The notes below the pieces were generated by a model. That model saw nothing but the letters and a program-made list of their open reading frames with translations. It was not told the origin of the DNA and made no database searches. A DNA stretch of 64,000 nt, taken from contig CM097885.1 of the NCBI GenBank assembly GCA_044892525.1, positions 139,500,001-139,564,000 on the forward strand. Direction: 5' to 3'. Of the stretch, positions 15,594-47,653 are shown piece by piece (the stretch's first letter is position 1; every line of letters begins with the position of its first letter). A program made the translations under genes and the position numbers. The DNA comes from Schmidtea polychroa. Lineage: Eukaryota.

Positions 15594-15599
15594 TTTATT
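15594..15599 (-). terminator. Likely poly(A) signal AATAAA in the 3' LTR
   Basis: Follows the LTR ORF stop and precedes a U/GU-rich tract. Equivalent position in LTRs B and C. Confidence 0.55.
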
Positions 15600-18884: not shown

Positions 18885-18963
18885 TTACCTATTGAGGTGG
18901 TTTGATTAACAGCAAGCTTATTTAAGTTTCACTTACCTATTGAGGTGGTTTGATTAACAGCAA
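18885..18963. repeat. 31-bp direct repeat pair in presumptive U3 (enhancer-like)
   Basis: TTACCTATTGAGGTGGTTTGATTAACAGCAA at 18885 and 18933, and also at 45127 and 45175. Confidence 0.85.
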
Positions 18964-19591
18964 TTGTTATGTTTTTAATGCCTGCTTATATATTAATTTT
19001 TTGTTTGCGCGGACCAATTAGAATTGAGTACCGCTTAATTTTATTAATTTAATTTATTTTCCTTGTTTTTGAGTTATTTCTTCTTATTTTCTTTATTAAA
19101 ATTATGTTTTTATTTATTTTCCTTAATTTTCTTATTATATACTATATTTTCTGTTGTTTTCCGTCATTCTATTGTCCTATTTAATTTTTCTCATCTTTAT
19201 ATTTTTTTGTTTTAATTCTTATTTTCTAATTATTGTTTTTCTTATGTTTTATTCTATTTTATTTGTCAATTTATTTGTTTTTATTTTTTTTTTTTTTTTT
19301 TATTTTATTTTAGTTAAGTTTGCCCTAATTTCCCAACTACCCTTCGACTCAGCCCAACAAATCACTCGGGGACCCATCAAAATTGCGTCCCGCAATTGCA
19401 TAGTTATCTTACTTCATGCATTCATAAAAAGGATATATCGAAACAATTATACTACAATAACAACAACAATTTATTCTAAGATATAGGTCAAATCAAGACC
19501 AAGCAAGTATCACTTAAGGTGATAGTTTGTATATACAATAAAAGTTTCTACATATGATAACACCAATGTTTGAGTTAGAGTTTATGAACTG

Positions 19592-24412: not shown

Positions 24413-25414
24413 CTATATACGTGAGTTTGGAGGGCGCTGAGCGTTCCAGGCCTCCACCCACTGTTCTTGTTTGATATCACTTGGTCGTTTCACTCGATGT
24501 TGGAAATTTCTGATTCGGGTCATCTCTAGTTCTCCGCGATGTCGTTTATCTTTAATTATTTTTATTGTTCCCCCTGTTATGATTAGGAAGGCCCCTGTTA
24601 TTATTATCCCACTGATCCACATCATCTGCTTCACGCTTATATTCTCTGGTTTCTCCTTGTTCGTTAATGTTGATATCGCTTCTGTACCTTTCTCGTTTCC
24701 TCTTTTGCCATTTCCTTTCATCATTTCCCGTATTCTTGCTATTTCCTCGTTCATACCCTCCTTTGCCATCTTTTGTATTTTTTCCATCTCTTCCTCCGAA
24801 ACATAGTTGTCCTGAGCTTCCTCACCGGTTTTCTTGTGCTTTCCGCCTTCGTCCTTTTCGTCGTTGTTTTTCCTTTTCTTCCCTCTTTTCCCCGGGTATC
24901 GTCGACATTCCCTTTTTGATTCGTTCCTCCAGATACAAACCGTGTATTCTTTCGGCGGCTGCTGCTGCGTCACATATTGATGGCATCTCTCACCTGGTCC
25001 TAATCTTGAAATACAGACTTTGTGCTCTCTTCTAGGTTGGAGCTGCGTTATTACTACTTCACCACCTTTTCCTAGGTGTACCTCTTTTCCTTTAACGTTC
25101 GTTATTCTCTTCCCGTCCCGATTTCGGTATGCTTCTTGTATTCTTACTTCTGTTATTGGTTCTGTGTCCTCATTTATCAGTACTAGTTTCTGATACGCTC
25201 TAGACATGCATCTTCCTAGTATGCACCTTTCCTTTAAGTCCCATTCTTCCTTTAAATCCCACTGCTGCTCTTGTGCTTGCTTTTTCTTTTCTTGTTTTAG
25301 TTCATCCTCTTTGCTATCTTGATTCTCCGCTTCTTTGGTTTCTTTTATCGTTCTCGTCCCTCCATGAGCTGTTACTAACTCTATCATGGTAAGCATAATT
25401 ATCATTAATATCAT
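24413..25414 (-). other. C-terminal polyprotein module: signal peptide, FN3-like ectodomain, TM, short tail
   Basis: Signal-like MILMIIMLTMIELVTA; VVITQLQPRREHKVCIS resembles FN3 strands E-F; TM MMWISGIIITGAFLIITGGTI. Confidence 0.55.
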
Positions 25415-28400
25415 ATTTGTCTCTATTTCTTTGTTAGTGAAAGGTAGGCATACCCTCTGTTTTCCATTATTCGGTTTTTCCTCCTCTTTGGTCTTGGTTC
25501 CCGGGCTGTTTCCCTCTCTTTTCGTATCCAAATCCTTGTTTTCCGGTTTATCCTCTTCCGGTTCTCTTTTCCCTTTATCCTCTTTTCGGCCTTTTCCGTC
25601 ATTGTCATCGTGTTTATCTCCCCCGCTGTCGTTTAAAATGTCGTCCCCGACATTTATATCGTTCAATAATCTGCGATATCCTGTTAGCACTCTGTTTCTT
25701 GCTAATTTTGCTTCGAATTCAAACTCTTTTCTACCCGTTGCAGCATGTCTCTTTCTATTCCATTCTTTAACTAACTCTCTCAATTGCATACGACGATGTT
25801 TCCCAATTCGTTGTTGCTCGTTCTGATTTTTCGTGAATTTTAGGTCTTCTCTATTTAATACTATTAAAATAATTTTAGGCGTCCCCCCCTTAGTTAGGGT
25901 ATTCTTTACCATCGCATTTTCTCCGTTTTCGTAGAATTCGTTTACATTTATCGCATATTTATTATTTTGTGGTACTCTCCAGGTTAATAATAATTTCATT
26001 GCTTCTAGATTTTTCCGTACCGTATTCCATTGAAACTGAGATGTGTTTTTGCACATATTTTCAACTTCTTCTTTTGTCGCATTTTTGAAAATAAATCTGA
26101 TCATTTCTAAGTTTGGCTGTATGGTTGCCCAGTCCAATGTGGAGTTCCCTTCGTTTGATTTTTCGTCTAGTCTCGATCCTGATTGATGTAGGATGTGGAG
26201 TGTTTTTGGGTGTATTTTCGTTATAGCTGCATACATCATGGCGGTTTCACCTTGTTCATTTTTCGTGTTGGTTTCCTCGCCCATCTCCCCAAGGATTCTC
26301 ATGATCGTTATTGCTCTATTCTCTTTTGCAGCTAGTATTGCTTGTTGTAGAGGTGTTCTGGAATCCTTTGTTGCCATCGTAAATGCTCGAGGCAAGAAGG
26401 TTTTGATTTTCCCGATATCTAAACCCGTGGTTTGATCTCTTGCGTATGTGTGTACGGCTTTTATTATTTTTGACAATATTATTTCGTCTGATAGCTCTAG
26501 CATTTCCTCGAAGAATACTTCTTTTGCTTTGCGTATTATTGCCTCTTGATCTAGACTCATTGGTTTTGTTTCGATGACGTGGTTTGTGACCGTTTGGTTC
26601 GTTGTTGACTTTGATTCCCTCGGTTTCTCATACCTTATTTTCGTTTTCTTTCCGTTTAGATTATTGATTCGTTCCTCTGCTGTGAGTATTTGGATAATAT
26701 CCAGGTAATTCTCGCGGATGTTATTCATTGTGTCCATCATATATAACACACTTACCGTTTCCCAATATTTATTTCGTACCTGAGTAATGAATTGAAATAT
26801 TGATCTTTCGAATGTGTCGATTCGCTTTTTTAATAACTGCTCCTCTTTATGATTTGTGAATTTTATCCCTCGTTCTAGTAATTGATTCGGAATTTCGAAT
26901 AAATGATGTCCTTTCATAGCTTCTCTCATCAGCGTGTTCTCTCCTCTCGTGAACGCTTCGTTTACGTTGATCATATAATCGTTTTGAATTGGATTTCTCC
27001 ATGTAATTAATATTCCGGTAATTGTCGTCAATTTTTCTTTGATCGCTGTTAACAATCCATCATACATGTTTCCGACTTCTCGATTGTCCTCATATGATAG
27101 TAGTTCCATCAATGACGTGAACGCCTCGGTACTTCTCCCTTCGATAGCATGATGTAGAGCGTTTTTCCGCTCGTGGTCTTGTGTAGTTATTTTCGATCCA
27201 GTATCAAGTAATGCGGTTATAATGTCTTTGGTTTTGCCTCTGTTTGCTGCTATCATTAATGGTGTGTAACCTTGGTTGTTTGTTTGTTCTGTTGATCGCT
27301 TGCAGTCGTGAAATGCTTCTATTGTTTCTAGTATTTGCTCGTTGTTACCTACTTTCATGAGTTTGTGTAATGGTGTGTCTCCGTAATGATCTGTTATTGT
27401 AAATAATATTGGCCATTGGCTTTTGACTACTCGCAATAATGGGTGTGTCCTTTCTCTATTTGCATAGTTCTCGATCATCGTCAATAATCCTCCTAATATT
27501 TCGAAATCTAATCGATCTTTTGCCCATCCAGGTATTTTAATTTTTACCTCTTTTACAATCTTTTCCGCTTCTGATGGTTGGATACCCAATCGTCCAGTGA
27601 TCGGTTCTGCGAGTTGTTGCATCATGTTCATTCTGTAGGTTTGCGAACGTGTGGTTAATGTACGGCCTTCTGGTTGACTAGTGGCTGTTTTTGGAATTGA
27701 TTTGCATCGTGCCACGTTTACGTATATTGGCCTGGTAAATGGGTTATTTACCAATTTCACTCTTACATTGGTTTCGCCTACGAATAAGATCTCATATGGT
27801 CCTTTTCCGTTGCGTTGTAACTTTTTTGTGGTTCCTGGAATTAATTCCGGGGTTTCTATCATTACCCAATCACCTGTTTGAAACGTATGTTGCTTCACGT
27901 TTTTCTTTCGATCGTGTAAATCTTTATAACTTTCCTGGTAGAACTTGATATTTAATCCCGCAGTTTCCCAAATTTCTTGCATTCTTTCCTTGAATTTCGT
28001 AACATAATCATCGATCTCCATATACTGCGATATCGGTGGTTGGTATTCCAGGTCCATTGGCATATTACACTCTCTTCCGTACATTAATTTGAATGGGCTC
28101 ATTTTCGTTGATGCGTGAATCGACATTCTGTATGCCATAAGACATAGGTTTATATATTCGTCCCAATCTCGTTGGTGACGGTCGACGTAGTTTGATAACA
28201 TTTGTATAAGTGTTCCATTAAATCTTTCCGTCATCCCATTGGTTTGAGGGTGGTATGGAGATGTTCTTAGTTTTGCTATTTTGAAGTAATTTGTTACTTC
28301 GCTCATTATCTCACTCATAAAATTAGTTCCCTGATCGGTTAATATCTGTTTTGGTGTTCCATATCGGCAACATATCTCTTCTACCAAAATTTTTGCGATT

Positions 28401-31400
28401 GTTTTAGCTTTTTGGTCTGGCATCGCGAATGCTTCTGGGAATTTCGTAAGAAAGTCTGTGATCACTAGAATGTAAACGTTTCCTTTATCTGACTCTGGTA
28501 GTGGACCAACTACGTCCATGGATATCATTGTCATTGGTTCTATTGGTACTGGCATTGGCGTTAAAGGTGCTTTCCATTTCGATCCCGTATTCTTCCTGGT
28601 TGCACAAGTTAGACAATTTTTTACCCATTCGGTTACATCTTCAGTTAACGTAGGCCAAAAATATTTCTGTTTCATTCTTGCTAACGTCTTTTTCGATGAC
28701 ATATGTCCTCCCAATCTCCCATCGTGATATTGCGTTAGTAACTCTTTTCGTCGGTTTTCCGGTATACACATTAATCGTTTTTCCCCATCCATTATCAGCA
28801 ACCAATCTTTCTCTATAATATATCGGTGTCGGTGTTTATCCATATGTTCTTTTAATTTTTGGTCTTTCGCATATACATCTGTCTTTCCGGTTTTTACATA
28901 ATCGATAATTTGTTTTAATTCCGCGTCCTCTTGTTGGTCCTTTCGCAATTGACAGAAATCCAAATCTTCCGCTACTATTAAGCATATGCGTTGCATTTCT
29001 GAATCCACCAAATCTGGGAAAATAAATCTTGACATACAATCGGCGTTGGCATTTGCTCTTCCCGCTTTGAATTTTATAAATGGGGAGTATTCTTGCAATT
29101 GCATGGCCCATCTCATCAGTCTACTGGACGCTTCTTTATGTTGCCCTAACCACACTAATGGTTGATGATCGGTGGTTATGCATATCTCATGTCCCCATAG
29201 TAAATATCGGAAGTGTTTGATAGCTTGTATTATAGCCAATGCTTCTCGTTCTGTTACTGAATAGTTCTTTTCGTGCTTTTTGAATGTTCGACTGTAATAC
29301 CCGATTACTCTCTCTTTTCCTTCATCGTCTAATTGTCCCAGAATCGCGCCTGCCGCGTACCCGCTTGCATCCGTTGCCAATAGAAATGGCTTCTTAAAAT
29401 CTGGGTGTACTAGGATAGGTGCTTCGATTAGTTTATCTCTCAGCGTTTCGAACGCCTGTTGTTGTTCTTTTTCCCAAATGAACGAAATATCCTTCTTTAC
29501 TTATTCCTGGATTGGTTTTGCAATTCCTGCATAATTTTTGATAAATTTGCGATAGTATCCGCATAATCCTAGAAATTCCTGAACTTGGGTGACAGTTTTC
29601 GGTGCTGGACATGTTTTTATTTTCTCAATGTTTCTTGGATCTGGCTCCTTTCCTTTAGCTGACACTATGTGTCCCAAAAACGTGACTTTTTCCTTTGCCC
29701 AATCGCATTTTGATGGTTTGAGTTTGAGTTTCCACTGTCTTAATCTAATAAATACGTTTCGGATATCTTCCAGATGTTGTTCAAATGTCGCTGAATAGAT
29801 TAGTAAATCATCAATATATACCATACATTGTTTGATTCCATGGGTGACAAAATTCATACACCGTTGAAATGATGCTGGTGCATTGGTCAGTCCGAATGGC
29901 ATTTTCCTGAATTGATATAGATCTCGTCCCAACGTGAAAGCTGTTTTCTCTTTGTCCTCATCTTTGACTTTAATCTGCCAGTATCCACTTTTTAGATCTA
30001 AAGAAGTAAAATATGCTGCCCCTTGCAACATCAATAACATCTCATTGATGTCCGGCAATGGATAGGTATCTCTCTTGGTTACTGCGTTTAACTTCCGATA
30101 ATCGATACAGAATCGTTGGGTGCCATCTTTCTTTTTTACCATGACCACTGGGAATTGCCAGGGTGAGCAACTTGGTTCGATTACTTTTGCGTCTAGTATC
30201 TTTTGTACTTCTGTTTCGGCTATTTCTTTCTGCATTTCTGCTAGCTTGTATGGTCTCAATGCAATTGGGGTTTCGTCTATGAGTGGTATTGCATGTAAGG
30301 TAACATCACATGTACCCAAGTCTAAATCTGAGATGGCGAATATATCTTTATATTCTACCAACAATCGGTGCAATTTTTTCTTTTCATCATTCGTCAACAA
30401 CATACTATCTATTGTCCATAATTCATCATCTTTGATCATCTCGTTGGTCACTTTCGGTAATTCTATGTCCATCATTGGGGTCAATCTTCCCAATTTTTCG
30501 TTCTCATAAATGATTTTGTCTTCCTCTTCGAAATTCGTGATGTTGAGCGGTATCACTCCTTCTTGGTTTATTGTGATTATTTCCCTTGCGAGTGGTAACT
30601 CTCGTCGCTTTTCAAATGACTTGCTTGGTTCAAAGATAACTTCTCCTTCCATACCCGTATCCACTTTTATCTGACAAATCATCTGCGATTTTGCTGGTAC
30701 TATTATTTTTTCTGGACATCTGATGACTGCATTCATTTTGCATATTCTACCGGTTTTGTCTTTTAAACACATGGTTGTTAAGTCAATTACGACTTCTTTT
30801 AACAATTCTGGCATCAAATCCGTTCCGATTATGCATGGTACGCTAAGGTTTGGTATTACTGCCAAATACGTTTCGATTTCGTTGTCCTGGTATCTCAAAG
30901 TAGTCCACCATCTTCCGACCACGTCCACTGTTTCTTTACTACATGCTATGATGTGAATTGTTGTTGATTCGATATCTTTCCAGTGTTTACTGGGGATTTG
31001 ATTAATCGCTATCGCTGATACATTAGCTCCGGTGTCTATCATAGCATTGGTTTCTTTACCATTGATTTGAATCATAACTGTTACTGCTGGACCTCCAGGT
31101 AGACTCATCGCTGCTATTGTTCTTACGTCATCTGCTTGATCTACACTTTTGGTACGTCGTGTTGGCATATAATGCATACCGGGTTGACTCGGTAATTGCG
31201 GATACATATTTTGTGTCATGGTCAAAGCTGCTTGTGGTCCCACGATATCCGGTGGTATGTAGCTTCCATTGGCGATCCAGGTATTTGTCTTTTCCTTTTC
31301 CCAATATGGTGCCGTTTCCATTGGTTTTTCGTTTGGGTTTCTGTTTGGATATAAACATTTGTCGTTCCCGTTAGCATCGTCGTCACTATCGCTGTTAGAT

Positions 31401-34400
31401 GATTGGCTTCTAAATCTGTCCAAAAATTTTTGCTTATTCTTTTTCAATTGTCGTCTTGTTGCTTCGTCGTACATTACTTTCCGGAATCGTCTGCCTACTT
31501 CCTCGTCGGTTCCTTTAATCTTTGTTAGTATTTTAATCAATCGCTTTATCCGATGAATGTCTTTTGAGTGACCATGTAATACCATGGTTTTAGCTAAAAA
31601 TGGTAGAAAGCCTACTATCATTTTCCAATTTACTTTCTTTTCTCGCTTGTATATATCAAAACACGCTAACATTTGTGTTAGTATTACCCTGACTATCTGA
31701 ATTATGAGTATGATCCCTAATATCCCGGCCATCATTTGTCCAAAAACTAAGAATCTTCCCCACATTGCTTTCATCATGTTTGACGTGGCTTGTTGAAAGT
31801 GGTCTGGCGATAGTAGCAGTTCGTAATTCGGGCCTGATTGATAATTTGTTCCCCCCGTTATTGTAACCATATTTGACAAAATGGATTCTCGTCTGGCTGG
31901 GAAGAGTACGTTAAGTCGTGCTGTTTCTAGATCTTCTGGGGAATACATACCACCGTTTGACACGTCTATAGGTTTGAAATCTAGCTCTGTGGCGAGTTCT
32001 ATTAATCCAAATTTCTTGGGCTCCTCGGATATGGTTTTTCCCGGTAACATCATCCATTTTCCATCGGGCCTTTCATACAAAGGTCCGTATGCATTAGAAC
32101 AGTTAAAGAGATTTGGGTAGAAACCCACTGGATTCATAATTCTAGTGACTGGTTGGACGAATCGATTTTGTCCTTTATAACGGATTTCTAATTCATTTGC
32201 ACATCTCTTTTCGGGTAGTATAGATTTTTCTGGCATTCGTGCATACGTCTTGGTACACTGGTATGTGTACATTACTTCTCCTACCATTCTACCAAAATGT
32301 CCATCCGGTAATGGGAGTGATGGCATCGTGTTATCTGGGTGCGTTATCGCAATAGCTAGCTTTGTTTTCAATATTTCTTTATTCAATGAACAATCGTTTT
32401 GTATCAGATCGTAATATACTTTTTGCAAGGTCGTTTGTCCGCGATGAAATAGAAAATCCATTTTATTATTTGCATATAAGTATAGTTTTACGTCCTCCGT
32501 TGCTATCTTTCCCACTGCTCTATCGATTATTTGTCTCGACATATAGATGCCTGCGTAATTGGTTTTATATACTATACTGTCACATTTGGTGGTTTCTTTC
32601 TCTTTGATAAATCTCATACCTAGATCTGGATCGTCTGTGATTAATGCTGTTGGTGTCTTCTGCGTTGAAAGTCTCTTTTCTCTGGGAGATGGTGGCATTG
32701 GTTTTCCATTTCGCATTCTCACTCTGTCGTTTCCATCCTCGTCGTTCTCGTTCTCATATATTTCTCCTTTTACTTCATTGAACAAAGCACTTTTTAACAG
32801 TTGGAGTCGGCATTTTTGGGTATTAGCTTCATAGATTATAGTTGATACTCCTGTCCTACATACGTTTTCTGTAGCTCTACACGCTGGGTTGGTCTTCATT
32901 TGGTAATTATTTGCGTCAAATTGCGCTTCGTATTCCTTTAGTTCAACCGTATAGGACTCAATCACTACTACCCCCGATATTACTTCGCCTCGGATCGTAT
33001 ACGTACCTCCGTTACATGACCCATCTGATGATTTTACTTTTCCGGATACGTAAACGCTTTCGGTTTTAATCATTCCAGTTTGTCCGTGAATCGTCACTCC
33101 GTTATGCATTTTTAGCGCTCCGGTTCTAAATAGCTATTTACAGTCCTCTCGTTGTATTGATACGATTTCTTTATCCAGACCAGGTAGTATAAGAGTCGAA
33201 TACGAATATTGTCCACAGTAATATGCGAGTACCTTTTTTGATACTACGCATTCCCTTGCTTGCGTTCTGATGAAATCTGATTCTTGATATACATGGTAAG
33301 TAACTTTTGTTCTTACTATGTCTAATTTGTTGGGTGATGCTTGTCTGCATTCTTCTATGTCTCTCAATGAGTATTTATCTCTCATTATCATATTATCACA
33401 ATCGTAGATGGTAAAACCCGTTGCTCCACTGGTGCACAACATCCATATCATCATAGTCATCATTAACGAATTTATTGATGCTTTTCTGCTTGCGGGATCT
33501 TTCATCGGTAGTTCCCATTCTAGTTCATTTAACAGTTTTTTCAATCTAACTTGCATCGACCTTTCTTGCTCATTTTTTCGTGGCGCTTGTATCAGTCTTT
33601 TCCATCCTCCGGCACGAATAATATGTGATTCAATAGTATTCTCTATGATTGAAACGGTCATTTCCACATGATTTGCAAACTGTTTATTTGGTATTTTCCT
33701 CGCGGCTAGTCCCATCAAATTATACATCAAATACGTGATTACCACTAGGTGATGTTCGTCGTCATTTGCGTTCGTCGTGAGCTGTTCAATCACTCTCTTT
33801 GTTTCATCCCAGTCCGTTTTGGTGGTTTTCGTTTTCTCTTTGATTAACTTTGGGATTATCCCCGAAACGATGTGCCATAATTGTCTAGCTTCCGTACTGG
33901 CTACTTTCCGTTGCCACAAACGTCTAAGTTGTGGGTTTGTTATTATTAACATATCTTTTATCAATTCTCGTATCCATTTTTCTCCTCTTTCGATCGTTGG
34001 TTGGGCTTCCTTTAGATCCCATACTATTTTATCCAATTTTTCTAATCGAACTTGCCCTTGTTCTTGCTTTAATTGTTCTTTGGTTTTGAACTCAGACTTT
34101 TCTCCTTGTTTCTTAGGTCTTCCTTTTGCCCGTTTTTCCATCATCGTTCCGGCTTCTCTGGTATTTTCGTAATTCGGATTTCTTTCGTTATCCGTTCTGG
34201 GTAATGAGCTATCGTTATTTCTTAGCCACTCATTCCATTCGTCTATTATTTTATCGGTTTGACCTTCTGGTGTTACTTTCGTTGGTTCTCTTTGCTTCTG
34301 GAATTGTTCATCCGTTTCGGTTTCCGTAGTATTGTCGATGATTTCTTTGATGTTCAGTTTCGTTGGTTGTTGATAACTCGTTGATGGCTGGTTATTAGTC

Positions 34401-37400
34401 CACATTTCGGCTCCTGTCGGCCATCTCACTAATAGCGGTGATCTTTCTCCTGGTTCATCGTCACTATCTTCCAGGATTATCTCTTCAACTTCTTCAGTTT
34501 CATTAGATTTACTTGGTGCTTTGTTCGGACTTGGAGTACTCAAACTGCCTTTTGTTGGTTTAGTAATTTTACTTTTCCTTTTTAACGGTTTCCCCAACGT
34601 TTCGGCCATTGTTAATACATTTGTCTCTTCCAATCTCATGGGTGTTATTCCGACGTCTGCATTATCGTCTAGTGATTTTCCGAATAGTTGCAGATGGAAT
34701 GGAGTTTCATATGCTAATTTCTTTTTTAATTCTCTAATTTTTGTTGTTGGATGCACCTCTAGTTCTTCGATGCTCTTGTCCGGGTACTTGATTCGGATGT
34801 GATACCTCTCTTGGGTGTCTTGTGCCCATTCCTGATTTCTCCATTTTCGAATAATTTGTTCTAGCTGTTCTGGATACCATTCATTATATTGCCGGTATTC
34901 CTCTATTGCCTTTGCCATTCCTCTCAGATTGTGGATGTTCTCTGATGTCTTTAAGATGATGTTAGCCAACGCTACTACTTGGCGTTTTTGATTTTTCGCT
35001 CCCATTGCTAAGATATCGCCTAATTGTTTATATCTTTCTGTCTCTTCTCGTTCTCTTGCTTCCGTCGCTTCCTCGCCGTCCATATCAGCATATTCACGTT
35101 CCTTTTTCCTCATTGCATGAATATGTCTCGCTTCATTTTCGCTTTCTGATGTGACATCCGTCTCGCTTTCGTCATCTGATGTCTGTCCCCTTGCTTCCTC
35201 TTCATATTCTGGAGGTTCCTCTTCTTCTTCCTCCGTTTCACTTTCTGTCTCACCAATGTCTGTTTCTACGAAGATTCCTTTCCGGATTTCCCATTCCTTA
35301 TTTTCAGCATTCCACACTCTTTCCCATGGGGTTCGTCTGCAGGATCTGGTGCTTAATTTCGTGATTTTTCCTTGTAGTTCTTTTTCTTTTAACCATTGTT
35401 GGTGGATTTCAATTATTTCTGTAGATTTCTGATATAACGTTTTCATCCGGTCTCGTATTTCTTTTTGATAGATTACATCTCTTGTTCGAAATTCATCCAT
35501 TGGTACTATCCTGATGATCTGATGATTGTCCCACATACCCAATTCGCTTAACGAGGTGTCGTCTTCTGCTCGTAATATTATTTTATCGTACATCATGACT
35601 ACATCATCCACCATACCATCACTACTTTCGCTACGTACCTTTTCCGTTATCTCTTGGTTTATCTTTGATACCAAGTCATCCACTGTACTCTGATTGCTCA
35701 TTTTTATTCGTCGTTTTTCTTCGTTCGGTAACCATATGGTTATTTCCAACCTCTGTGGCTGGGTTTCTTTCAACCTTCCATATTTGTGGATCAAATTTAT
35801 GGTTCTCCAATCACTCATCCGGAGCATTTCTGTATCTCGCAATCGGCTCATTAGTTCGTACATGGCTGGGGCTCGTCTGGTGATGAGTAGATCCCAGTTG
35901 TCTTCCACTTGTTCTTGAATTTGTTTGATCAGCTTATCCAGGTTTCGTCTCAGAGTACATTGTTTTATTTGTTCTAATTTCAATTTGATATTAAAATCAT
36001 ATTCTGCCTTGGCATCTTTAGCCCAATCGTAAAGGTTGGCTGGTTGTTTTTCTTTATGCAACTTTAGTATTTGCGTTTCTCCTGGCCATATTAGTGCATC
36101 TACTAAGTGCATATCTGGTTTAATCTGTTCTCCTTGGTATTGATACAGATATTCTTTCTTTCTCGAACTTCCCAAATGTTCTCGTATCCAATCGAAAAGT
36201 TCGTCGGTGACTGTATTTTTTATCCACATTCTTTCAAGTCCTCTACTCGTTCCGATTTTTATTACATACCGCGTGGTATCGGCCTGCTTCATTTTTCCCA
36301 TATACTTTTTTATAATTGATTTTTCTTCGTTTGGTATTAGATCTTTCTCGTTTCTTTCCAATTTCATCACTTTTTGCACGAATCGCCTGAATGGTATTAC
36401 GTCGATGAACTCTTGGTTCCTCACTACTACTGGGAGTATTTCGGCTACCTGTTTTATCGCTTCCTCCCTTGCTTTTCTCAACTTTATTTCGATATCTTCG
36501 TCTTCACTTTCACTGGTTATCTCGCTTTCGCTTTCTTCTTCTTTGATTTCCCCTTTTGGAGGTTCGCTTATTTTATTCGGCTGTAGTATTTCTCCACCCA
36601 AACTACTTACATAGTCTTCTTCTTCGTCTGACGATGCTACCTCTTTTGTCCTTTTCATCATATTGATTTGCAAATTTCTCATCCTTGGTACTCTCTTTAG
36701 TTTCTTTCTTTCGAATATCGTTGTTTCTTCTGATTCTAATTCTTGTAGCATTTGGTGGTTTAGTTGACTGGTTTGTTCCTTGCTCTTGTTATTTTCATCT
36801 TCTGTCTCGGCTTTCGCTTTATTATGTTCTTTTTCGATTTTATCTTTTATCTTTTTCCAGAATATTTTCTGAATTCTCTGGTTTCCTTTTAAAATCGTGG
36901 TTGAATTCTCTGTTTTCATTTCCGTTGTTGTTTCTGTTACCTTTTCTGGTTCAGTCATGGGTACTACCCTTGGGTTTTTCCCGTAATTGTAGCAATACTG
37001 GCTTTTCATGTCTTTTACTAACTTCATCATATTAATTCGCAATGGTTGTTCTTGTCGTTGTTGGTTGCGTTCTTGTTTTATCCTCTCTTCCTCGGCCTGT
37101 AGTCTTTGCCATTCTTGTACATGTTGATGCACTTCATAATTGTTGAGATTTTCGGTACTCCTCATCATACGTATATTCTGGGTTTGTTGTGGTGCTGATT
37201 CCGGTCTCGGTCTCATCATTTGTTGCATCATCTGTTTCATCTGCGAGATTTCCTGCATAACGTTCATTTGTTTTCCTTCGCTAGGGTTACTTTGTCGTTG
37301 CGGATTCGCCATATAATTATTATTTCGCTGTGGTGGTCGTTGTTGTTGGCCCCTTTCTCGGCAATCTCTGGAGATGTGACCTGGCTGACCACAGTTAAAA

Positions 37401-38266
37401 CAACCTCTCAATTGGCATACATTTTCGGTATGTCCACGCCGTCCGCAACGATTACAATTTGAATTTCTATAGCAATCTCTGTCCCAGTGTCCTGGTTTAC
37501 CGCATGTTCGGCACTGCTTGTTATCGTTCATATTTCGTCGATTATTGAAATTGTTCTCATTATTCGGGTTGTTACGATTACCATTATTCCCATTTGATCG
37601 TCCTTGTGGTGGTTTGAAAATTTGGTGCGCTCCTGGTATAAATTGATTCATTTTCGGTTCTTGATTGTTGTTATCTCCGTTATCCGCTTTCGCTATTGCT
37701 GTCATTATCCTTCCCTCCTCTTGCATAATATTCATTTGAGCTGGAAGGTGGAGCTCGCATCTTGTAGCCCAATCTATGGCTTCCTCTAATGTTTTGCACA
37801 TTTGACAACCTACTGAGGCTCTTACTTCTTCTCGGCGTAATCCCTCTATGAAATAACCGATCAGATTTTCTTCGGGTAATTTTCCATTCATTGCTTTCTT
37901 CGCTAATCTCCGCAATTCACTGGCATATAATGTTATCGATTCGTTTGCTCTTTGTTTCCTATTTGCTAGTTCGCCCAACGCCTGGTTGATTGGCTTACTG
38001 GCTCCGAAGGTTTTCTTCAGGAATGTTTTGATATCTTCCCACTTTTCTAATTTCGTATCTCTCTCTTTAGTTTCTAAATATACTTCTAATGCGCTATCGC
38101 ACAAAAACAACGGCATCCTTTTACTAATTGCTTCGGGTGTCCATCCACATACAGTGATATAAACTTCAAAATTAGTTATGAACGTTGCTAACTTGTTTGC
38201 ATTTCCGTTGAACGGTTCTCCTCTGAACTTTTCTTTATACTCGTCGGTTTTTACGACATTCGTCAT
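24413..38266 (-). CDS. gag-pol: Single Gag-accessory-Env-Pol-accessory polyprotein frame (4618 codons) with two internal stops (33134-33136 TAG, 29501-29503 TAA)
   Basis: ORFs 33134-38266, 29501-33109 and 24413-29380 share one frame. The gaps translate without further stops: EDCK*LFRTGALKMHNG and KPIQE*VKKDISFIWEKEQQQAFETLRDKL...PFLLATDAS. Confidence 0.92.
26090..26370 (-). other. Ankyrin repeat block 2
   Basis: SRTPLQQAI, NEQGETAMMYAA, NEGNSTLDWA. Confidence 0.8.
27100..27400 (-). other. Ankyrin repeat block 1
   Basis: DHYGDTPLH, NNQGYTPLMIAA, DHERKNALHHA. Confidence 0.88.
27700..28760 (-). other. pol: Integrase (H2C2 zinc finger, DDE core, GPY module)
   Basis: H-X5-H...CLTC; ISMDVVGPLP, LTDQGTNF, NGMTERFN; GPYEI. 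Confidence 0.97.
29030..29500 (-). other. pol: RT connection and RNase H
   Basis: ATDASGYAAGAIL, NYSVTEREALAII, TDHQPL, NANADCMSR. Confidence 0.95.
29504..30330 (-). other. pol: Reverse transcriptase
   Basis: RFCIDYRKLN, LDLKSGYWQ, MPFGLTNAPASFQR, and catalytic YIDD at 29807-29818. Confidence 0.98.
30740..31100 (-). other. pol: Retropepsin aspartic protease
   Basis: AMIDTGANVSAI (DTG at 31028-31036) and CIIGTDLM. Confidence 0.95.
31570..33463 (-). other. env: Envelope-like glycoprotein resembling chuvirus (Jingchuvirales) G, with own signal peptide and TM
   Basis: Signal MMTMMIWMLCTSGATG; motifs YCGQYS, GSCNGG, LYANNK, DCSLNK, GEVMYTYQC, CANEL, FVQPVTRI, GGMYS, FPARRESIL; TM FGQMMAGILGIILIIQIV. 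Recognised by motif recall, not by search. Confidence 0.75.
33590..34040 (-). other. Divergent Bcl-2-like helical domain
   Basis: Ends in BH2-like HIIRAGGWKRL, preceded by a BH1-position hydrophobic helix HLVVITYLMYNL. The NWGR motif is absent. Confidence 0.55.
34605..34810 (-). other. Ubiquitin-like domain 3
   Basis: YHIRIKYPDKSIEELEVHPTTKIRELKKKL...LQLFGKSLDD matches the beta-grasp pattern. Confidence 0.65.
35500..35755 (-). other. Ubiquitin-like domain 2
   Basis: LEITIWLPNEEKRRIKMSNQSTVDDLVSKI...LSELGMWDNHQIIRIV. Confidence 0.55.
36057..36271 (-). other. Ubiquitin/SUMO-like domain 1
   Basis: YVIKIGT...LFDWIREHLG...YQYQGEQIKPD...LIWPGETQIL. Confidence 0.45.
37361..37513 (-). other. gag: Three CCHC zinc knuckles (nucleocapsid)
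   Basis: CRTCGKPGHWDRDC, CNRCGRRGHTENVC, CFNCGQPGHISRDC. Confidence 0.97.
37760..38266 (-). other. gag: Gag capsid region
   Basis: Retrotransposon-gag pattern RKQRANESITLYASELRRLA...YFIEGL...KTLEEAI upstream of the knuckles. Confidence 0.85.
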
Positions 38267-38925
38267 GATTGGTGTTCTAGATTCGTCTGTTTCTTTTAAA
38301 TTGTCTAACGATGTGACTAAACTTTGGGCTGATAATTCCTCGGTTGACGTTGCTAAACTATTAGTGATGTCGGACAGACTTTCTCTGCTTCGAGATCGAC
38401 TAGGGGTGTATCCGAGATTTTCTTGGTCAAATATAGGTACTTGATTGGTTCTTCTTGATCCTTGCGATATTCCTCTTTGCTGTTTAATAGATCGTCCTCT
38501 TTTGAGTTGTTGTAATTCGTCTCCTGAAAATAATACGTCTCCTGGCTTACTTGAAGATCTAAGATTGGGTTTATCCGTGATTCCTTTCTTACGCTTCTTG
38601 GTAATTAGCGGCTATTGAATTGGACGAGTTCGGTTCTGATTGTGTTTCCTTCGATAAATATTCTGTATGGATCTGCTACTGTGATTCTGAGGAGATTCAC
38701 TAGTCCTTGACAGATGGCTGCTAATATTATGAGGTTGAATATATCGATGATTCGTTCGAAGTTGGAGATATCGCTATCTGTATCTTCTTCCGTTCTGGAG
38801 TCTTCCGGTTGCTGTGTCTCTCGGTGCGGGTTCTGAATGAATTTATTCTTGGTCGATTGTCGATTTCTTCGAATTCCTTTTGTGCAGGTTCTGGATTGTC
38901 TTGGTTGACTGGATTGGTTTGATAT

Positions 38926-39630: not shown

Positions 39631-40030
39631 TTACGACTGGCTGGCACTATTCAACAGCTCAATCTTCCTCCTTCTGATCGGTTGGACTATTCGACAACTC
39701 GATCTTACGACTGGCTGGCACTATTCAACAGCTCAATCTTCCTCCTTCTGATCGGTTGGACTATTCGACAACTCGATCTTACGACTGGCTGGCACTATTC
39801 AACAGCTCAATCTTCTTCCTTCTGATCGGTTGGACTATTCAACAACTCGATCTTACGACTGGCTGGCACTATTCAACAGCTCAATCTTCCTCCTTCTGAT
39901 CGGTTGGACTATTCAACAACTCGATCTTACGACTGGCTGGCACTATTCAACAGCTCAATCTTCCTCCTTCTGATCGGTTGGACTATTCAACAACTCGATC
40001 TTACGACTGGCTGGCACTATTCAACAGCTC
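39631..40030 (-). repeat. 74-bp x 5.4 tandem array of alternating 34/40-nt hairpin subunits in the leader
   Basis: Units start at 39631, 39705, 39779, 39853, 39927 and 40001. There are no unique spacers, so it is not CRISPR. Confidence 0.95.
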
Positions 40031-40181
40031 AGCTTTAACATTCTTTACTATGCATGCTTCTACTTCTCTTTTCTTCTTTTACTCAAGATTACCATTTTCT
40101 CTGTCTATTTTTAATTTGTTGACTTAATCTTTACCGCTCGGAAGTGTGTCCCCTTTCCCCCCTTGCTCAAAACGCACGACG

Positions 40182-40251
40182 ATCGCGATGATCCATTTCT
40201 ACATTGGCATGGTGATCAGTCATGCCGCAGAAACTTCTCATCATTTGCGAT
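40182..40251 (-). ncRNA. Conserved leader stem-loop with palindromic UGAUCA apical loop (DIS-like)
   Basis: Four nested helices with compensatory changes relative to 8303-8372. Confidence 0.65.
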
Positions 40252-40594
40252 GGTACCCCGCCCTACGCTCCTCACTTAGGTTGATCGGTTATCCCCTCCC
40301 AATTGGTTTTATCGTATGATAGAACGTACCGCCCTAAGGTGGCTCGGCTTGTACCCTTACAGCCTATATTGGGACTAATTCCACGTTATTTCGGTTTTCT
40401 TTTCGTTTGATTCCAAAACAAAGTTATAAAATAAAATTAAAAGCCATAAATTACTCAGTTCACAACAAAAATTTATTCGTCATAAAAATAAAATTTAAAA
40501 CTTTAATAAAATTTCACACAACAATTACATTCATTCTCATTCAATTGTCAGTATCAATTTGATGTTCATAGATGTCATTGTAGCTGTAACAGTT

Positions 40595-41131
40595 TTATTC
40601 ACCATAATAAACCATATGAGTTTCTTTTATTTCATGCCTACATATCGTACATCGTTTTAAATCGTTCACACATTCTTCGCAGTGACTGAGGTGTCCACAC
40701 GGCAAAAACAGTACGCGAATAGGACGAAGTTTACAAGCACGACAAGTTCGTAGTAGAGTCAGTTTTTCTTGTATTTTCCGCTCGATTGTATCTGATATGG
40801 TATTTAGTGGATCTTTTATACGTTGATAATCAAGATTTAATGCTGGGTGGTTCAATCTCTCTTGATACCATTGATACACGGTTTCCGGGTTTACCTTCCC
40901 CTCTGGGTGACTTAGTCCTGTGGCTAATAACATGTCGTTGGGGACGGCTGGTGTTTGCCCGATTGCTTGAAGTAGTATGATGTTAATTCTTTCTCTTTTT
41001 TGTGTCAGCGTTTTAAGGGAGTCATTCTCGATGTTTATGAAGTTGATTAGTTGTTGTATCTGGTCCACGAATTCCGTCATGTCTATTAAAAAAAATGTTT
41101 CAGTAATATATGACTTCGTTTCGTCAAACAT
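40595..41131 (-). CDS. IAP-type C3HC4 RING protein (no BIR), first ORF after the PBS
   Basis: CRACKLRPIRVLFLPCGHLSHCEECVNDLKRCTICRHEI at the extreme C-terminus, as in IAP E3 ligases. Confidence 0.85.
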   Translation of the reverse strand: MFDETKSYITETFFLIDMTEFVDQIQQLINFINIENDSLKTLTQKRERINIILLQAIGQTPAVPNDMLLATGLSHPEGKVNPETVYQWYQERLNHPALNLDYQRIKDPLNTISDTIERKIQEKLTLLRTCRACKLRPIRVLFLPCGHLSHCEECVNDLKRCTICRHEIKETHMVYYGE

Positions 41132-41381
41132 TCTCTTTTCTAACTCGTTATCATTATTTTACTTTTATCTTATTTCTCCATCATTAAATTTGCTTTATTT
41201 ATATTTTTAATTTTATTATTTTCTATTCGTGATTTATAATAAGATTCGATAAGTATTAGTCAATTTGCACTCGCTAACCCATTGAAATCACTGATCCCCG
41301 GTGAGTTCACTCTATTCGACAGAAATTCACTCAATAACATCCTTATCCAGTTTACACTAGTCAATGGAAATTTCAATCTAA

Positions 41382-41399
41382 ATCCCGGCTGAGCCCCCA
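41382..41399 (-). promoter_or_regulatory. Primer-binding site (tRNA-Pro-like) of element A
   Basis: TGGGGGCTCAGCCGGGAT has 16/18 identity to the canonical tRNA-Pro PBS. A 7-nt spacer TAATTTT separates it from the LTR. Confidence 0.85.
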
Positions 41400-41833
41400 A
41401 AAATTATGTTGCGGGTACACTACTCGGATGACCCCTTTCTAGTGCAACTTTAGTCTAGAGGATGAATGCCACCTCGATTTCGCCCATCATTTATTTGGTC
41501 ATCGCCGAGCGGGACCCGTACATAACTTACACTCCAACATAGCACCCGTGAATTGCTTCACGTTGGAACTGTGCTATGCCGGCGAGACGCCAGTAAGCAG
41601 GTGAGCCAGCTCCTTCGGACTACTCCTTACTGAGGCCTCGACTTCCCAACCCTGACTGCCGATAGAAGGACTTACGTCTACTCATTCCGTCGCCCCATCG
41701 CAATATTTCTAGCTGAGTTTACCAACTGACTAATGCTCCTCATAATTTTATGACTCTCAATACCATTTACCAATTTCAACTCAACTGTCTTAAGATGAAC
41801 ACAAAGAAAAAAAACGTATGCAGACAAAAATGG

Positions 41834-41839
41834 TTTATT
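41834..41839 (-). terminator. AATAAA poly(A) signal copy in the 5' LTR
   Basis: Same site as 15594-15599. Confidence 0.5.
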
Positions 41840-41973
41840 ATTAAGATTATCACACAAATATATCTAACACCTATACAATAAAGTTCACGACAACGGGAAA
41901 AGAGACAAGGTAAAATGTTATCAGACAATGTTCAGGTCAATTCAGAGAACGAAGACTTTTTACGGGGAAGTTC

Positions 41974-42723
41974 TCATTTCTCCCACTCCGAGTCTGCCAA
42001 TAGATCTTCCAAATCGAAAAACTCAGAGGCGTTTTCCTCCCAGGTAACACCAGCGGCGGAGGTGATTCGCCCTGAGATCACTGATGCTAAATCGATTGCT
42101 GCAGGAGGGTTGATGACTTTGATTGGATGATCCGACGATTGCTGGTTCTGTTTGGCGGTCACGCGTTCCCGCTGTTTCTTTTTGCGTTCGGCTCTCGATA
42201 ATTGCCGACGCTTCGGCTTCGCTGCCGTTGGATTGGTCGGGGGTGCTGCAGAGGTAGATGCCATCACAGGTAACGCTTTACTGGTTCCGGTAAAGATGAT
42301 TTCTGGTTCTTTGGGTGAGAGTTCGGTCTCTACGCACCCATTGCAGGACTTTCCGACTGGAGAAGAAGACCCGCCAGAGATATCATGATGCGCTGGGAAA
42401 AGATTACTGGATTCATTAATTGGGATCTTCGCGATCTTCCTTGTAGTTGCTGCCTGGACGTATAATTTGCGCAGCGCCTCCGACTGCTCTTTTATCAGGC
42501 TCCTCTGCGCCCGACTCTCGGAAATCAACGCGTCTCTACAGTGCTCGCTTCGGTGCAGCTTCTTCTGAACCCCCTTCATCTGGGTGGGACTAAACCATGT
42601 CCCCTCCAACTCATCTATCCTTCTTTTGTGCTTTCCGATTTGGGCCTGGAGCTCTTTGATAATTGAATTCTTGTCGGAGTAAGAAAAACAAGGTCGAAGA
42701 ACGGTCTTGGAATTTGGCAACAT
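41974..42723 (-). CDS. LTR-encoded 249-aa protein (coiled coil, TWFSP motif, basic Arg-rich motif)
   Basis: Intact ORF with homologs in LTRs B and C. A splice acceptor lies 10 nt upstream of the ATG. Confidence 0.75.
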   Translation of the reverse strand: MLPNSKTVLRPCFSYSDKNSIIKELQAQIGKHKRRIDELEGTWFSPTQMKGVQKKLHRSEHCRDALISESRAQRSLIKEQSEALRKLYVQAATTRKIAKIPINESSNLFPAHHDISGGSSSPVGKSCNGCVETELSPKEPEIIFTGTSKALPVMASTSAAPPTNPTAAKPKRRQLSRAERKKKQRERVTAKQNQQSSDHPIKVINPPAAIDLASVISGRITSAAGVTWEENASEFFDLEDLLADSEWEK

Positions 42724-42733
42724 TTTTGAGTGA

Positions 42734-42770
42734 CTGTGGAAAAAAATGAAAAATGAAAATAATTAACTCA
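42734..42770 (-). promoter_or_regulatory. 3' splice (or trans-splice) acceptor for the LTR ORF
   Basis: TTTTCATTTTTCATTTTTTTTCCACAG|TCACTCAAAAATG. Confidence 0.6.
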
Positions 42771-44870
42771 ACGGGAGTGTCACCATCGGACCACCTTCAT
42801 ACTTTATTGATCATAGACAAAAATATGGGTTTACCAGTCAAGACAAGTTCTACTGTGCGATGGATCCTCCTACCCTTTGGGTCTTAATCATAAGAAGGTA
42901 AATCGATCAAACCAGATTTCGCGCCAAGAAAAGAAGATATTACCATTAGTGAGAGAAATTCTAGGTCGATGAAAATGATTATTTATTTAATCCGCTTGAA
43001 GTCGTTACTTCACGTTTACCGAGAATCGTGTTAAGTTGTTGACTTCTTCCCCCCGTACGAGTGATTTTGATGGGTGTATCATATACTGGGGTCGAGTGAC
43101 TATCTATGAAAAAAGGGGGTCCATAATGTCCGTTGATCAGTTCCTACAGGATAAACGGAAAGTTATTTAATTTCTTTTTTATTATTTATTCATTCTCTCT
43201 AATTACTCACATATGTGTTTTACCTGGTTTACATAATATTTATTTAATAATATTCGATATTAATGTTAATGATAATCATGTCAAAATGAAATAATTTCTA
43301 TGCCATTCATGCTAAGATAATAAAGAGAGAATAATCATAATTATGATCGGGTTTATCATTAAAAAATATTGTCTTTATGATATCTGAGCACGGTATCAAT
43401 GTGAGCTAGTAGCCGACCATTCCTGCTAGGTAGATAAGGAAATGTCAGCCCGGTGGTTGACTATTAATCCGGAGCGGTGAAATCTGATAGCTGTCGGTAG
43501 TTTAATTGGCATGTTCGATCTAATTTTACATGAGTAGATGCGTGTGTGACTTTGCCTACTGTACTTGGCTACTAGGTAAGTCTGCAACTGGTGACGCATG
43601 CAAGGTGCGCTTTCACACACTTAATTATACTACAAATGCAGGCGTTGAATGTTTGCATGATGGCATTCTCTCAGAATTTTATCCACCGCGTAATCACTCA
43701 CAATTCTACGGCATATGGTGATGATTTACTAATTCTCACCGGATTATTGAAAAAATTATAATTATCTGTATTGCAAATGTTGGATATAGCTTGCTCCAAG
43801 GGTGGATTTTTCGTCTTTAATTCCTCAAGCCTAGTTTATCAATCTACTCTCTAAGTGCTGGAGGATTTTTTCCTATCCCTGCTGGGTTGCCAACCTCATG
43901 AAATACTGGAATTTTATATTTAATTAACAAGATCATCGGCTAACTTGAAGAAATATATTTTCTTGGTTCGAGTTGGTTGCATTTTTCATTGTTAAATTAT
44001 TTGATGCCAATAGTTTATGTAATTATGATAATTAATTGTATGTAAATTCTTTTATATATAATTCTAAAAATTTATGATAGCGAATCATTTTATGCAATTT
44101 AAACTTTTATTTGGAACAAACTCGTTTTTTGTAATTCTGAATAACTTTTTGGATTAAATCATTTTACATGGTTCTACCATTTATTTACAAGCGGTCATTT
44201 CGGGTAATCCTAATACTTGTCTAAAGCAATCTACTTTGAACTCCCTTGCAACTATGTCTTTAAGAGAACTTTTAGATGAACGGAATAACAGTTCAGAAGG
44301 TCATAGGCTAAAAATCGTCGGAACAGATTCTGAGTGAAAAGTATGAACATCGAAGATATGTCACAGATAGCCTCACTAAGGTTTGAACAATTCTTGACGC
44401 ACAACTTACATTGATGATGAAGAAAAAAGTTTTCTTAGCAAAAACGACATTCGAAAACGATAGTGTGACACCCTCAATCACTGCGCGAATACATCAAAAT
44501 TCTCCGATTCCTTTATTACATATCTTTGTTTTCAATCACTACATGACTATCAATTTTCTGCCACCATTTACCTATAGATTTTAGTCGCACCTTCAGCAAT
44601 TGGACCCGTGAAGAAGCCCTCACATTTCGGCCCAATCTAGCTGCGTGATTGAAATACCCTATGTCCACCGGTGGAGCTCCCGAAGGCACCTCACACCATG
44701 ACATAGAGTATCTCAACGCCACGTTTCTCGCAAGATTGAATAGTCTCCAATAATAATTCATAAAAATTAATTCATAAAAGATCAATAATTCTTAACGAGC
44801 AAATCATTTATTATTAAGCAAACTATTAATTTAAATAGAGCATTCGAAAATCAAACGAAAAGAAAAACCC

Positions 44871-44902
<32 letters not shown>

Positions 44903-47653
44903 AAATATTATTAAACTATACGCATTACTTAAAAATTCAAAATAAGCAATCAAAAATCCTTACCGAATGATTGATACAAGTATGGGCTGAGTCGAAAAGG
45001 GTACTATGTCGAATCAGTTAATGCTCGAATATCGTCTAGTTCTGTAAAAATCTCTTGAATCTTGGAATTGTCCTCGTGAGTTATCGTGCGTTAGTTGCTG
45101 GAGTTCTGTTCTGTCGTAGAATAGATTTACCTATTGAGGTGGTTTGATTAACAGCAAGCTTATTTAAGTTTCACTTACCTATTGAGGTGGTTTGATTAAC
45201 AGCAATTGTTATGTTTTTAATGCCTGCTTATATATTAATTTTTTGTTTGCGCGGACCAATTAGAATTGAGTACCGCTTAATTTTATTAATTTAATTTATT
45301 TTCCTTGTTTTTGAGTTATTTCTTCTTATTTTCTTTATTAAAATTATGTTTTTATTTATTTTCCTTAATTTTCTTATTATTTACTATATTTTACGTTGTT
45401 TTCCGTCATTCTATTGTCCTATTTAATTTTTCTCATCTTTATATTTTTTTGTTTTAATTCTTATTTTCTAATTATTGTTTTTCTTATGTTTTATTTTATT
45501 TTATTTGTCAATTTATTTGTTTTTATTTATTTATTTTTTATTTTATTTTAGTTAAGTTTGCCCTAATTTCCCAACTACCCTTCGACTCAGCCCAACACAA
45601 ATAAATACCCATAGTGCTTCACATCGACATAAGAGAGTTGGCGTGGTAAAGTGCAGAGGGCTAATATCTACCTACTCAGGCTAATCAGTGAGGGCACATT
45701 GATCAAACCGCCATTGGTGATTATTTTATTCAATTAGGATAATTATTTGTTTCAGTTAATTTTAATTTAATTTAAATTAATTTCTTATTATTTTTTACTT
45801 TTACCCTGAGTAGTCCGGTTATCGCCAATAATTTTATTGGCCTCCTTTTTCGATTATTATGTCTTCTTTTCGAATATTGGTGTATATGTTGTAATCTAAT
45901 ATGTTTCTTCTGCAACTGCTTGGGGTTTTCTTTTCTATTTAATTTTTTAATAACGTGTTTTTTTTAATTAAGGTATTTTATTTTTATTTTGATTAACTTC
46001 TTGCTTTTTGACTATCACTTTGACAGATGTCGGCAATGATTTTTATTGTCTATCAATGGTCTGACCCCCAACAACACATGGAACATCACCGGAATATTAC
46101 AGCAGACATTTACTGTGAACAATTAGACTAGCTTTGACATATTTACGGCCAGCATTAGTCAATGGCAAGAGATATTCTAACAACAACATAACACAAGTGA
46201 GCAAAATGAGTGGAGAGGAAATGCATAAAGTAAAAGATATTTTGTTCTATAATTCTAAGAAAAAGGAAATAACAAAACAAATAAAATTAAACAAGGAAAT
46301 TTTTAATTAACAAGTACAATTTAAAAGTAGAAACATAAAACAAATGGAAAATGGAATTACATTACAGCTTGTCCGAAATAGCGAATAGACAACCGGGAAG
46401 TCGCTAAACTATAAAGGGGAAAGTTGAAATAAACTTGCATATCTCGACAGCTACCCGAGATAACAGGCCATAAAAGTGAAACACAACTTTGATTAAATGA
46501 CACAAAAGAGGATCAAGAGAAATTACAAAAAAATTATTAAAAACCAATATTTTCAACTTAAAGAAATTGGATCAATTCTACTAATTATAGAAACCAGAAG
46601 CAATAGTTACGTGGTTTAGAATTCCCAGTATGCTACAGGCGTGCTATTGTTACTGAAGGGCTGCAACAAGTATTCAGTCACTGTTGTAACATCGAATTAT
46701 TTTGTGTCATTGTGAATTGCTATTCTATAGAAGATTATATTGTTTGAAATTCGTTATTGCTATCAATTAAGATATGCTTTTGTATCACATCAATAATTCT
46801 TTTATATTTCAGCAACAACCCAAACATATTATATACCGTTCTCAGGAACACAACTTAACCCTTTAATTGCGGAATTAAATTTCATAAAGTCAGGAAACGT
46901 GTCAATTATCCGTCAACAAAAAGTTAAAGATATCATTGTGATTTGAAACACGTGTAGACGACCAAGTGAACATAATACATTTAATATATATTAAAAATAT
47001 CTTTCCCGAAGGGTTGTTAAAAGTAGAGACAATGGTCTATTCAATAATATTTGGATTTATCCGCATCCAATAGGTGTAAAAACAGAACGTTTAAGAATTT
47101 CTAGGATCTCAATTCTGGCAAAAGAGCTTTCTTTGTGTCGAAAGACCTTATATTTTTATGATCGAAATTACAAATCTTATTATTTACCGGTACTCTTAAT
47201 ATATTAACTAAAGACAGTAACGTCTTAATAAAAAGATGAAAACATTAATAGGACAACAAAATGAGGTTCTTAATCATCCACCAAGCCTGAAAAATGTTCT
47301 TGGATCATTCCATGGCGAATTATCAAATTTCACAAAGGTCTGGCTTATAATATGGGCTACTTTCTCGAATTAGAATTAAAATTGTATTTATTGAAGATTA
47401 TTTCATTAAAAATGTAACCTACCAATGACAAACTTTTGGAAAAAAAATTTGTTACTTAATATTGTATAATAAAATATGAAATAAGTGAAACAACAATTAT
47501 AATTAATGTATTTCAACACTAATCAACCAACCTTTTAAGCACAAAAATTGAAAACTATAAAGAATTACGTATGCAAAAATAACACGCATAAAACTTTATT
47601 AATTTTGTTATATAAATGCTTCAAAAATATTACACAATTTATTTACTTTAAAA

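Follow-up and report, generated by a model that had tools for sequence, protein, structure and literature searches.

A conserved RNA rod with a family-specific self-complementary bulge in the leader of Burro-type elements of Schmidtea polychroa: a possible dimerization/packaging signal

The DNA analyzed here, referred to as the window, is a stretch of 64,000 nucleotides of Schmidtea polychroa (assembly GCA_044892525.1, contig CM097885.1, positions 139,500,001 to 139,564,000), and its minus strand was found to be occupied at 15166-45597 by a 30.4-kb long terminal repeat (LTR) element with LTRs of 4.2 kb that are 99.4% identical to each other. By its architecture it is a Burro-type giant gypsy element as described in PMC6431247 (papers cited by PMC number were available in part and are cited for that part). 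Between the primer site and gag the element contains an RNA rod of approximately 175 nt with an unpaired 6-nt bulge. This bulge stays self-complementary while its letters change between families, which suggests a site where two genome copies pair. The window's element represents family A, a decayed copy elsewhere in the window represents family C, and families D and E were found in the rest of the genome. The features of the rod are as follows.

40133..40307, minus strand: whole RNA rod, unbranched, 57 predicted pairs; its lower half contains a row of small purine-rich internal loops
40182..40251, minus strand: four-helix upper stem; families D and E keep its shape but have other letters in the helices
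40212..40220, minus strand: apical 9-nt loop with the palindrome UGAUCA at 40213-40218; near-invariant in all families seen; unpaired probability 0.93-1.0
40252..40257, minus strand: unpaired bulge, GGUACC in A and C, GGAUCC in D and GGGCCC in E; proposed self-pairing site
40150..40162, minus strand: G-rich tract resembling a polypurine tract; forms the 3' strand of the lower half and is paired in the fold; the purine run is not kept in D
8254..8428, minus strand: decayed second rod copy (family C), stem at 8303-8372; 81% identity over 199 nt; loop and bulge each sporadically changed

A first-pass annotation of this DNA had described four nested helices without stating their strand. The helices were present at 40182-40251 and 8303-8372 on the minus strand, in the sense orientation of the element, and the two double compensatory changes in the second helix between A and C were as described, as was the G-U compatibility of the remaining changes within stems. 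When the 70-mers were folded on the minus strand, the free energy was -26.9 kcal/mol (z-score -4.04) for A and -23.5 kcal/mol (z -3.97) for C, and none of 200 shuffled sequences was as good in either case; the plus-strand folds were weaker (z -2.12 and -1.58, respectively). The 70-nt stem is the upper 40% of the rod. Folding of 40125-40315 gave a single rod with a minimum free energy of -69.6 kcal/mol (z -5.09, 0 of 200 shuffles), compared to z +0.27 for the opposite strand. In all 35 A/C representatives the sense fold was stabler than the antisense fold, and 37-57 of the 57 pairs were recovered.

When the stem was aligned over 21 distinct copies, 98.1% of the cells were able to pair and 4 of the 23 pairs had changed on both sides. 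Covariation in this alignment was 0.174 compared to 0.094 after shuffling, a value reached by none of 500 shuffles of a kind that related sequences can beat. Across the whole rod, 96.6% of the cells in the 35 representatives were paired and 8 of the 57 pairs had changed on both sides, compared to 38-48% paired cells in slid controls. Support in the lower half came largely from one-sided, G-U-tolerant change, which is weaker evidence yet indicates RNA. In nine copies from four lineages, double changes were found in 6 of the 21 stem pairs, with 98.9% paired. Loci were de-duplicated by identical 500-nt context, so that counts are contexts and not insertions; the rows left out were L066 (66-nt stem), L062, L085 and L090 (rearranged flank) and L110 (deleted 3' half). 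The idea that elements with near-identical reverse transcriptase (RT) lack the stem was ruled out, as 51 of 53 carry it. A coding explanation was rejected as well: the sense frames of A have 3, 5 and 2 stops across the rod, and the one antisense frame open in A has a stop in C. Rfam covariance models gave no match at gathering score in the window, and the three weak snoRNA matches at 39000-41500 (E 0.3-1.4) did not fall on the rod. The rod is almost certainly a real RNA structure, and it very probably acts in cis on replication of the genomic RNA.

The members of a large subfamily (L121-L173), many of which have 4732-codon frames, contain an A-C mismatch in the top helix. In this subfamily and in family D the loop palindrome also occurs a second time, in the lower 5' strand.

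The site at which self-pairing covariation occurs is the basal bulge, a stretch of 6-7 nt between the upper and lower halves of the rod that lies just outside the segment considered in the first-pass annotation (40182-40251). In a 600-nt context its computed unpaired probability was 0.67-1.0 in nine of ten copies and 0.51-0.85 in the decayed copy C. Counted by context, the bulge read GGTACC in 117 of 121 A/C copies and GGATCC in 29 of 29 D copies. After these two palindromic states were known, a search was run with the two central letters free, and it returned a third palindrome, GGGCCC, in family E. The stretch spanned by both lists of matches contained 52 loop motifs; 48 had the hexamer just upstream, and all 48 hexamers were palindromic (14, 16 and 18 by type). 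Among unlinked hexamer matches in the same stretch, 46 of 52 were non-palindromic. A rod-specific pattern gave 1116 matches genome-wide (control, 0), and all 100 matches listed were palindromic, with 29 A/C, 28 D and 36 E types and 7 D-like types with an E centre when sorted by eye. Bulge duplexes formed like-with-like had computed energies of -8.2, -8.4 and -12.5 kcal/mol, compared to -1.5 to -3.5 kcal/mol for cross-family duplexes.

In the search with the central letters free, non-palindromic matches with a TT centre (37 among 100 listed) did not have the loop motif and were lost under the rod-specific pattern. No conserved nearby partner for the bulge was found, as A repeats bulge 5-mers at -79 and -104 and D has none upstream within 1.5 kb.

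Family D was reached through an outgroup protein query and is 75% identical in the protease-RT protein and 74% in DNA. In 20 leaders there were 12 full-length matches to the rod model, namely 11 D copies (53-63 bits) and one A-like copy, and D retains the rod shape and the exact apical loop with the helix letters replaced. Family E was found by a search for the primer site (560 matches, 100 listed) and makes up more than half of the first 100 matches (for example L238, L254 and L258). In its first 4.7 kb there was no match to the rod model or to gag, and no frame longer than 136 aa in the three copies examined over that length. It keeps patches with 65-82% similarity to blocks close to the ends of the polyprotein and the MATH open reading frame (ORF), and five tandem E copies lie 13.55 kb apart, compared to about 26 kb for tandem A copies. 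An early idea that E has no rod, taken as against a packaging role, was overturned by two results. The loop motif was present in sense orientation 5.7-8.8 kb downstream of the primer site in 27 of 31 copies, never antisense or upstream (chance 0.007 per copy), and 74 nt of one E copy gave a fold with the same loop and the four helices, built from other letters (z -2.2). Family E is very abundant and shares the primer site; it is apparently a non-coding Burro derivative and likely non-autonomous. That an apparently non-coding family has the loop motif is as expected of a replication signal, not of a translation element.

The seven matches with D-like helix letters and an E-type bulge centre among the 100 listed (for example C1:19490817, 24309459 and 36912982) form a class that is a candidate autonomous partner of family E.

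For the apical loop, the first-pass annotation had reported UGAUCA in A and UGAUUA in C and had held the latter to be still self-pairing through G-U. Both hexamers are present, but UGAUUA is no family trait: it was found in 3 of 150 distinct contexts and, among the 100 matches listed of 182, only in the window's own copy. Near relatives of copy C carry UGAUCA, and copy C also has a broken bulge palindrome. The supposed G-U rescue amounts to -0.6 kcal/mol in a sporadic mutation, compared to -5.0 kcal/mol for UGAUCA. Conservation of the loop palindrome in other copies, on which the first-pass annotation had staked its proposal, was found in 147 of 150 distinct contexts, with the central position the same in all 182 genome matches and no lineage-level change across four lineages. 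Because the loop is nearly invariant across families, covariation cannot test it as a self-pairing site; within A/C its conservation is about that of other near-invariant stem positions, and the chance of a 6-nt palindrome in a 9-nt loop at this base composition is approximately 6%. The palindrome UGAUCA has central A-U pairs, four A-U pairs in total and flanks of A/G-C and C, that is, a single flanking purine. Since these properties depart from those of stem-loop 1 (SL1) of human immunodeficiency virus 1 (HIV-1), whose apical palindrome is rich in G-C, with G-C pairs at the centre and purines on its flanks (PMC5874298), the loop is not classed as of that type. Intramolecular pairing of loop and bulge (-1.1 kcal/mol in A, -4.0 kcal/mol in D) was not conserved and was discarded.

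The remaining features of the element are as follows.

41406..45597, minus strand: 5' LTR, 4.2 kb, 99.4% identity with 15166-19359
41382..41399, minus strand: primer binding site, common to families A, C, D and E; the pattern used has 560 matches in the genome and none in the control
40595..41158, minus strand: upstream accessory ORF with a C-terminal RING finger (PF13920, E 1e-11)
39631..40031, minus strand: array of 5.4 tandem copies of a 74-bp unit, separated from the rod by about 100 nt on its downstream side
24413..38611, minus strand: Burro-type polyprotein frame, by Pfam domain order; two stops interrupt the window copy
15166..19359, minus strand: 3' LTR, pairing with the 5' LTR at 41406-45597

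The gap from the stop of the RING ORF to the start of the rod is about 290 nt. The polyprotein contains gag, a zinc knuckle, a Monjiviricetes-type fusion glycoprotein, protease, RT, RNase H, integrase and ankyrin domains and is followed by a RING/MATH ORF; its frame has two stops in the window copy, compared to open frames of 4732 codons in other copies. Planarian Burro elements are described as longer than 30 kb, with LTRs, one huge polyprotein and an env-like region between gag and protease, and as having ankyrin, MATH/TRAF and RING domains and tandem repeats (PMC6431247). In the same way, the element at 15166-45597 exceeds 30 kb and has multi-kb LTRs, and its single polyprotein frame, 4732 codons where open in other copies, fits the approximately 4,800 aa expected and has an env-like region in frame between gag and protease; ankyrin and MATH domains are present too. 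Burro1 is expressed and under PIWI control (PMC8532177); PMC516450 served as background only.

Retroviral dimer sites are short palindromes (PMC5874298). In the rod, two predicted-unpaired hexamers are exposed short palindromes, with a 5' leader position in A, C and D, and at the bulge self-complementarity is retained through three states while the letters differ between lineages. The favoured reading, about as likely as not on the comparative evidence, is that the rod is a dimerization/packaging element in which the bulge is the self-pairing key and the invariant loop is read by a protein or forms a shared contact. Under this proposal the rod would act in cis on the genomic RNA of Burro-type elements as a dimerization/packaging signal, and two RNAs of one family would pair through the self-complementary bulge exposed just below the upper stem, a key specific to the family. 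A protein, most likely Gag/nucleocapsid, would read the purine-rich internal loops and the invariant apical loop; alternatively, the apical loop may be a weaker, shared second contact. We infer intermolecular pairing, Gag binding and a role in packaging from these computed properties. The narrower model, in which Burro genomes dimerize by bulge-to-bulge kissing, with the bulge centre as a family barcode and the universal loop as a Gag site or second contact on the same two-fold axis, is tentative, with the balance somewhat against it. What stands of the original dimer-initiation claim is a conserved RNA structure between the primer site and gag, probably for dimerization/packaging; the apical loop as its kissing site is not supported.

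Several points weigh against pairing through the bulge. Its three states represent only about two independent changes, and the chance that both would hit other palindromes is approximately 3/15 x 2/14 = 0.03 with equal rates assumed. Since sporadic departure is about 0.7% per site, the finding of no non-palindromic bulge among 100 is weak extra evidence, and because the patterns fixed GG..CC, families with other outer bases would escape them. Bulge types were seen in 100 of the 1116 matches, and all copies are from a single genome. The rod of family E was read as 74 nt of one copy, and its description as non-coding is based on 4.7 kb and one 13.55-kb tandem unit. Moreover, the central pairs of the A and D bulges are A-U, a type disfavoured in HIV-1 selection, and the retroviral dimer sites described in PMC5874298 are mostly in apical loops or short hairpins.

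In a rival reading, that of the first-pass annotation, the apical loop is the primary kissing site, with the bulge palindrome secondary or incidental. The 9-nt loop has a 2+6+1 layout and is predicted to be fully exposed, its palindrome persists in D and E despite replacement of the flanking helix, and it is located between the primer site and gag. HIV-2 SL1 combines an apical site with a basal palindrome (PMC5874298), and in models an extended duplex is more stable than two monomers by about 8-11 kcal/mol. Nevertheless, this reading is unlikely. It is unsupported because the palindrome never covaries, in 150 contexts or four lineages, because it is A-U-rich (four A-U pairs, -5.0 kcal/mol) with a single flanking purine, and because the UGAUUA cited as a rescue is sporadic. 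The invariance fits sequence-specific recognition equally well, and a subfamily (27 of 150 contexts) can pair the first and last loop bases, which shrinks the loop to 7 nt.

Recognition by a protein would be the whole function if the rod were a scaffold for packaging or nuclear export, in a role like that of the Rev response element (RRE) or constitutive transport element (CTE), without RNA-RNA contact. The rod is long and irregular, a shape that we take to be like those of CTE and RRE, and it has conserved purine-rich internal loops and an invariant loop. Motifs resembling the loop are also present in the lower stem and the 74-bp array, the rod is position-independent in family E, and Burro encodes extra domains that could bind it. 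This explanation is nonetheless improbable: it leaves unexplained a bulge centre that changes between families and is always self-complementary, and the rod has no Rfam match.

An internal ribosome entry site, or another element serving translation of the polyprotein that follows the upstream ORF, is very improbable; the rod is placed between the RING ORF and the polyprotein, and a long leader would presumably hinder scanning, but it lies about 1.9 kb upstream of the first in-frame Met, with the array between, and is kept in family E, which has no gag match or ORF longer than 136 aa in 4.7 kb. A DNA-level element (promoter or enhancer with palindromic sites) or an internal polypurine tract for plus-strand priming is scarcely credible either: a palindrome would be a suitable site for a dimeric DNA binder, and the rod includes a G-rich tract, with no clear purine tract ahead of the 3' LTR, but folding is strongly strand-asymmetric with many one-sided G-U-tolerant changes, the purine run is not retained in D, and a binder reading GG..CC would need no palindromic centre.

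Dimerization/packaging through the rod was compared to known systems. HIV-1 subtypes carry different palindromes, and discordant ones result in 2.3-fold lower co-packaging (PMC3605237). Like the dimer initiation site of HIV-1 SL1, the rod has an exposed 6-nt palindrome between the primer site and gag with internal loops below, and lineage-specific palindromes that pair only with their own kind, here as predicted (PMC5874298, PMC3605237). Unlike HIV-1 SL1, Burro has its varying palindrome in a side bulge, its apical palindrome is invariant, A-U-rich and flanked by one purine, and the rod is 1.1 kb behind the primer site, or about 6-9 kb in family E. HIV-2 SL1 similarly has one stem-loop with an apical hexamer palindrome and a second palindrome at the base (PMC5874298); in contrast, the HIV-2 PAL is 10 nt and partly entrapped, and the basal palindrome of Burro covaries, has 6 nt and is predicted to be unpaired. 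In mouse mammary tumour virus, a dimer loop is combined with a purine loop for Gag (PMC8096270). In the papers found, experimental mapping of dimer/packaging signals in LTR retrotransposons comes mainly from yeast Ty1 and Ty3, the RNAs of which dimerize through palindromes, with an internal-loop alternative in Ty1 (PMC6844567, PMC11381356). The short palindromes Ty1 PAL1/PAL2 and Ty3 PAL6, and Ty1 IL3 as an internal-loop alternative contact, match in kind the contacts proposed for Burro; the yeast sites are near the 5' end and were found by probing and mutation, whereas the evidence for Burro is comparative. No Burro RNA structure or dimer signal was found in the literature searched, which included the available part of PMC6431247, with Grohme 2018 and most subscription papers outside the search.

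More than a thousand genomic copies provide natural covariation that points to one 6-nt site, in a side bulge and not the usual apical loop. The natural A, D and E variants bear on partner choice by the RNA of a 26-30 kb retroelement, and in planarian genomes the bulge can be used to distinguish Burro families and the non-coding elements that depend on them. If the barcode reading is true, coexisting families would choose their partners, which would limit recombination, and a non-coding parasite such as family E would be identifiable from its key.

Some further observations concern the element itself. ARAGORN found no tRNA in the whole window, and no clear polypurine tract was seen before the 3' LTR (19360-19400, minus strand). 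The polyprotein frame has 115 open codons ahead of its first Met (38611-38266, minus strand), and a long open stretch is found at this place in family D as well; translation may begin at a non-AUG codon or the start may be joined by splicing. A candidate 79-nt GT..AG intron is present in two diverged copies, at 39004-38926 and about 1690-1610 (both minus strand), and it sits inside a second conserved block (38856-39202) upstream of gag. This block and the start of gag are also found at 691-1882 (minus strand), a third, decayed Burro fragment with no rod upstream within the window. Each unit of the 74-bp array (39631-40031) holds a 9-nt motif resembling one in the lower 5' strand of the rod, and from family to family the tandem array differs in its unit and its length (44 bp at 8028-8145 and 131 bp in L176).

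When relatives elsewhere were sought, the gag query gave one weak match, a metagenome scan gave no locus and viral contigs gave no match. The RT query returned mostly generic gypsy proteins and one with an env-protease-RT layout, the metagenome protein P0034, which has the same fusion glycoprotein-protease-RT order and an RT 65% identical, a Burro-like element from another source. The genome contains tandem element pairs and triples with a spacing of about 26.2-26.4 kb (one LTR plus the internal region) and a D-type tandem run with 15.8-kb spacing at C1:39.42-39.47 Mb. Unrelated neighbours in the window are two DDE_3 transposase fragments and an HLH-domain exon, at 52547-53179 (plus strand), 63525-63998 (minus strand) and 47654-48145 (minus strand).
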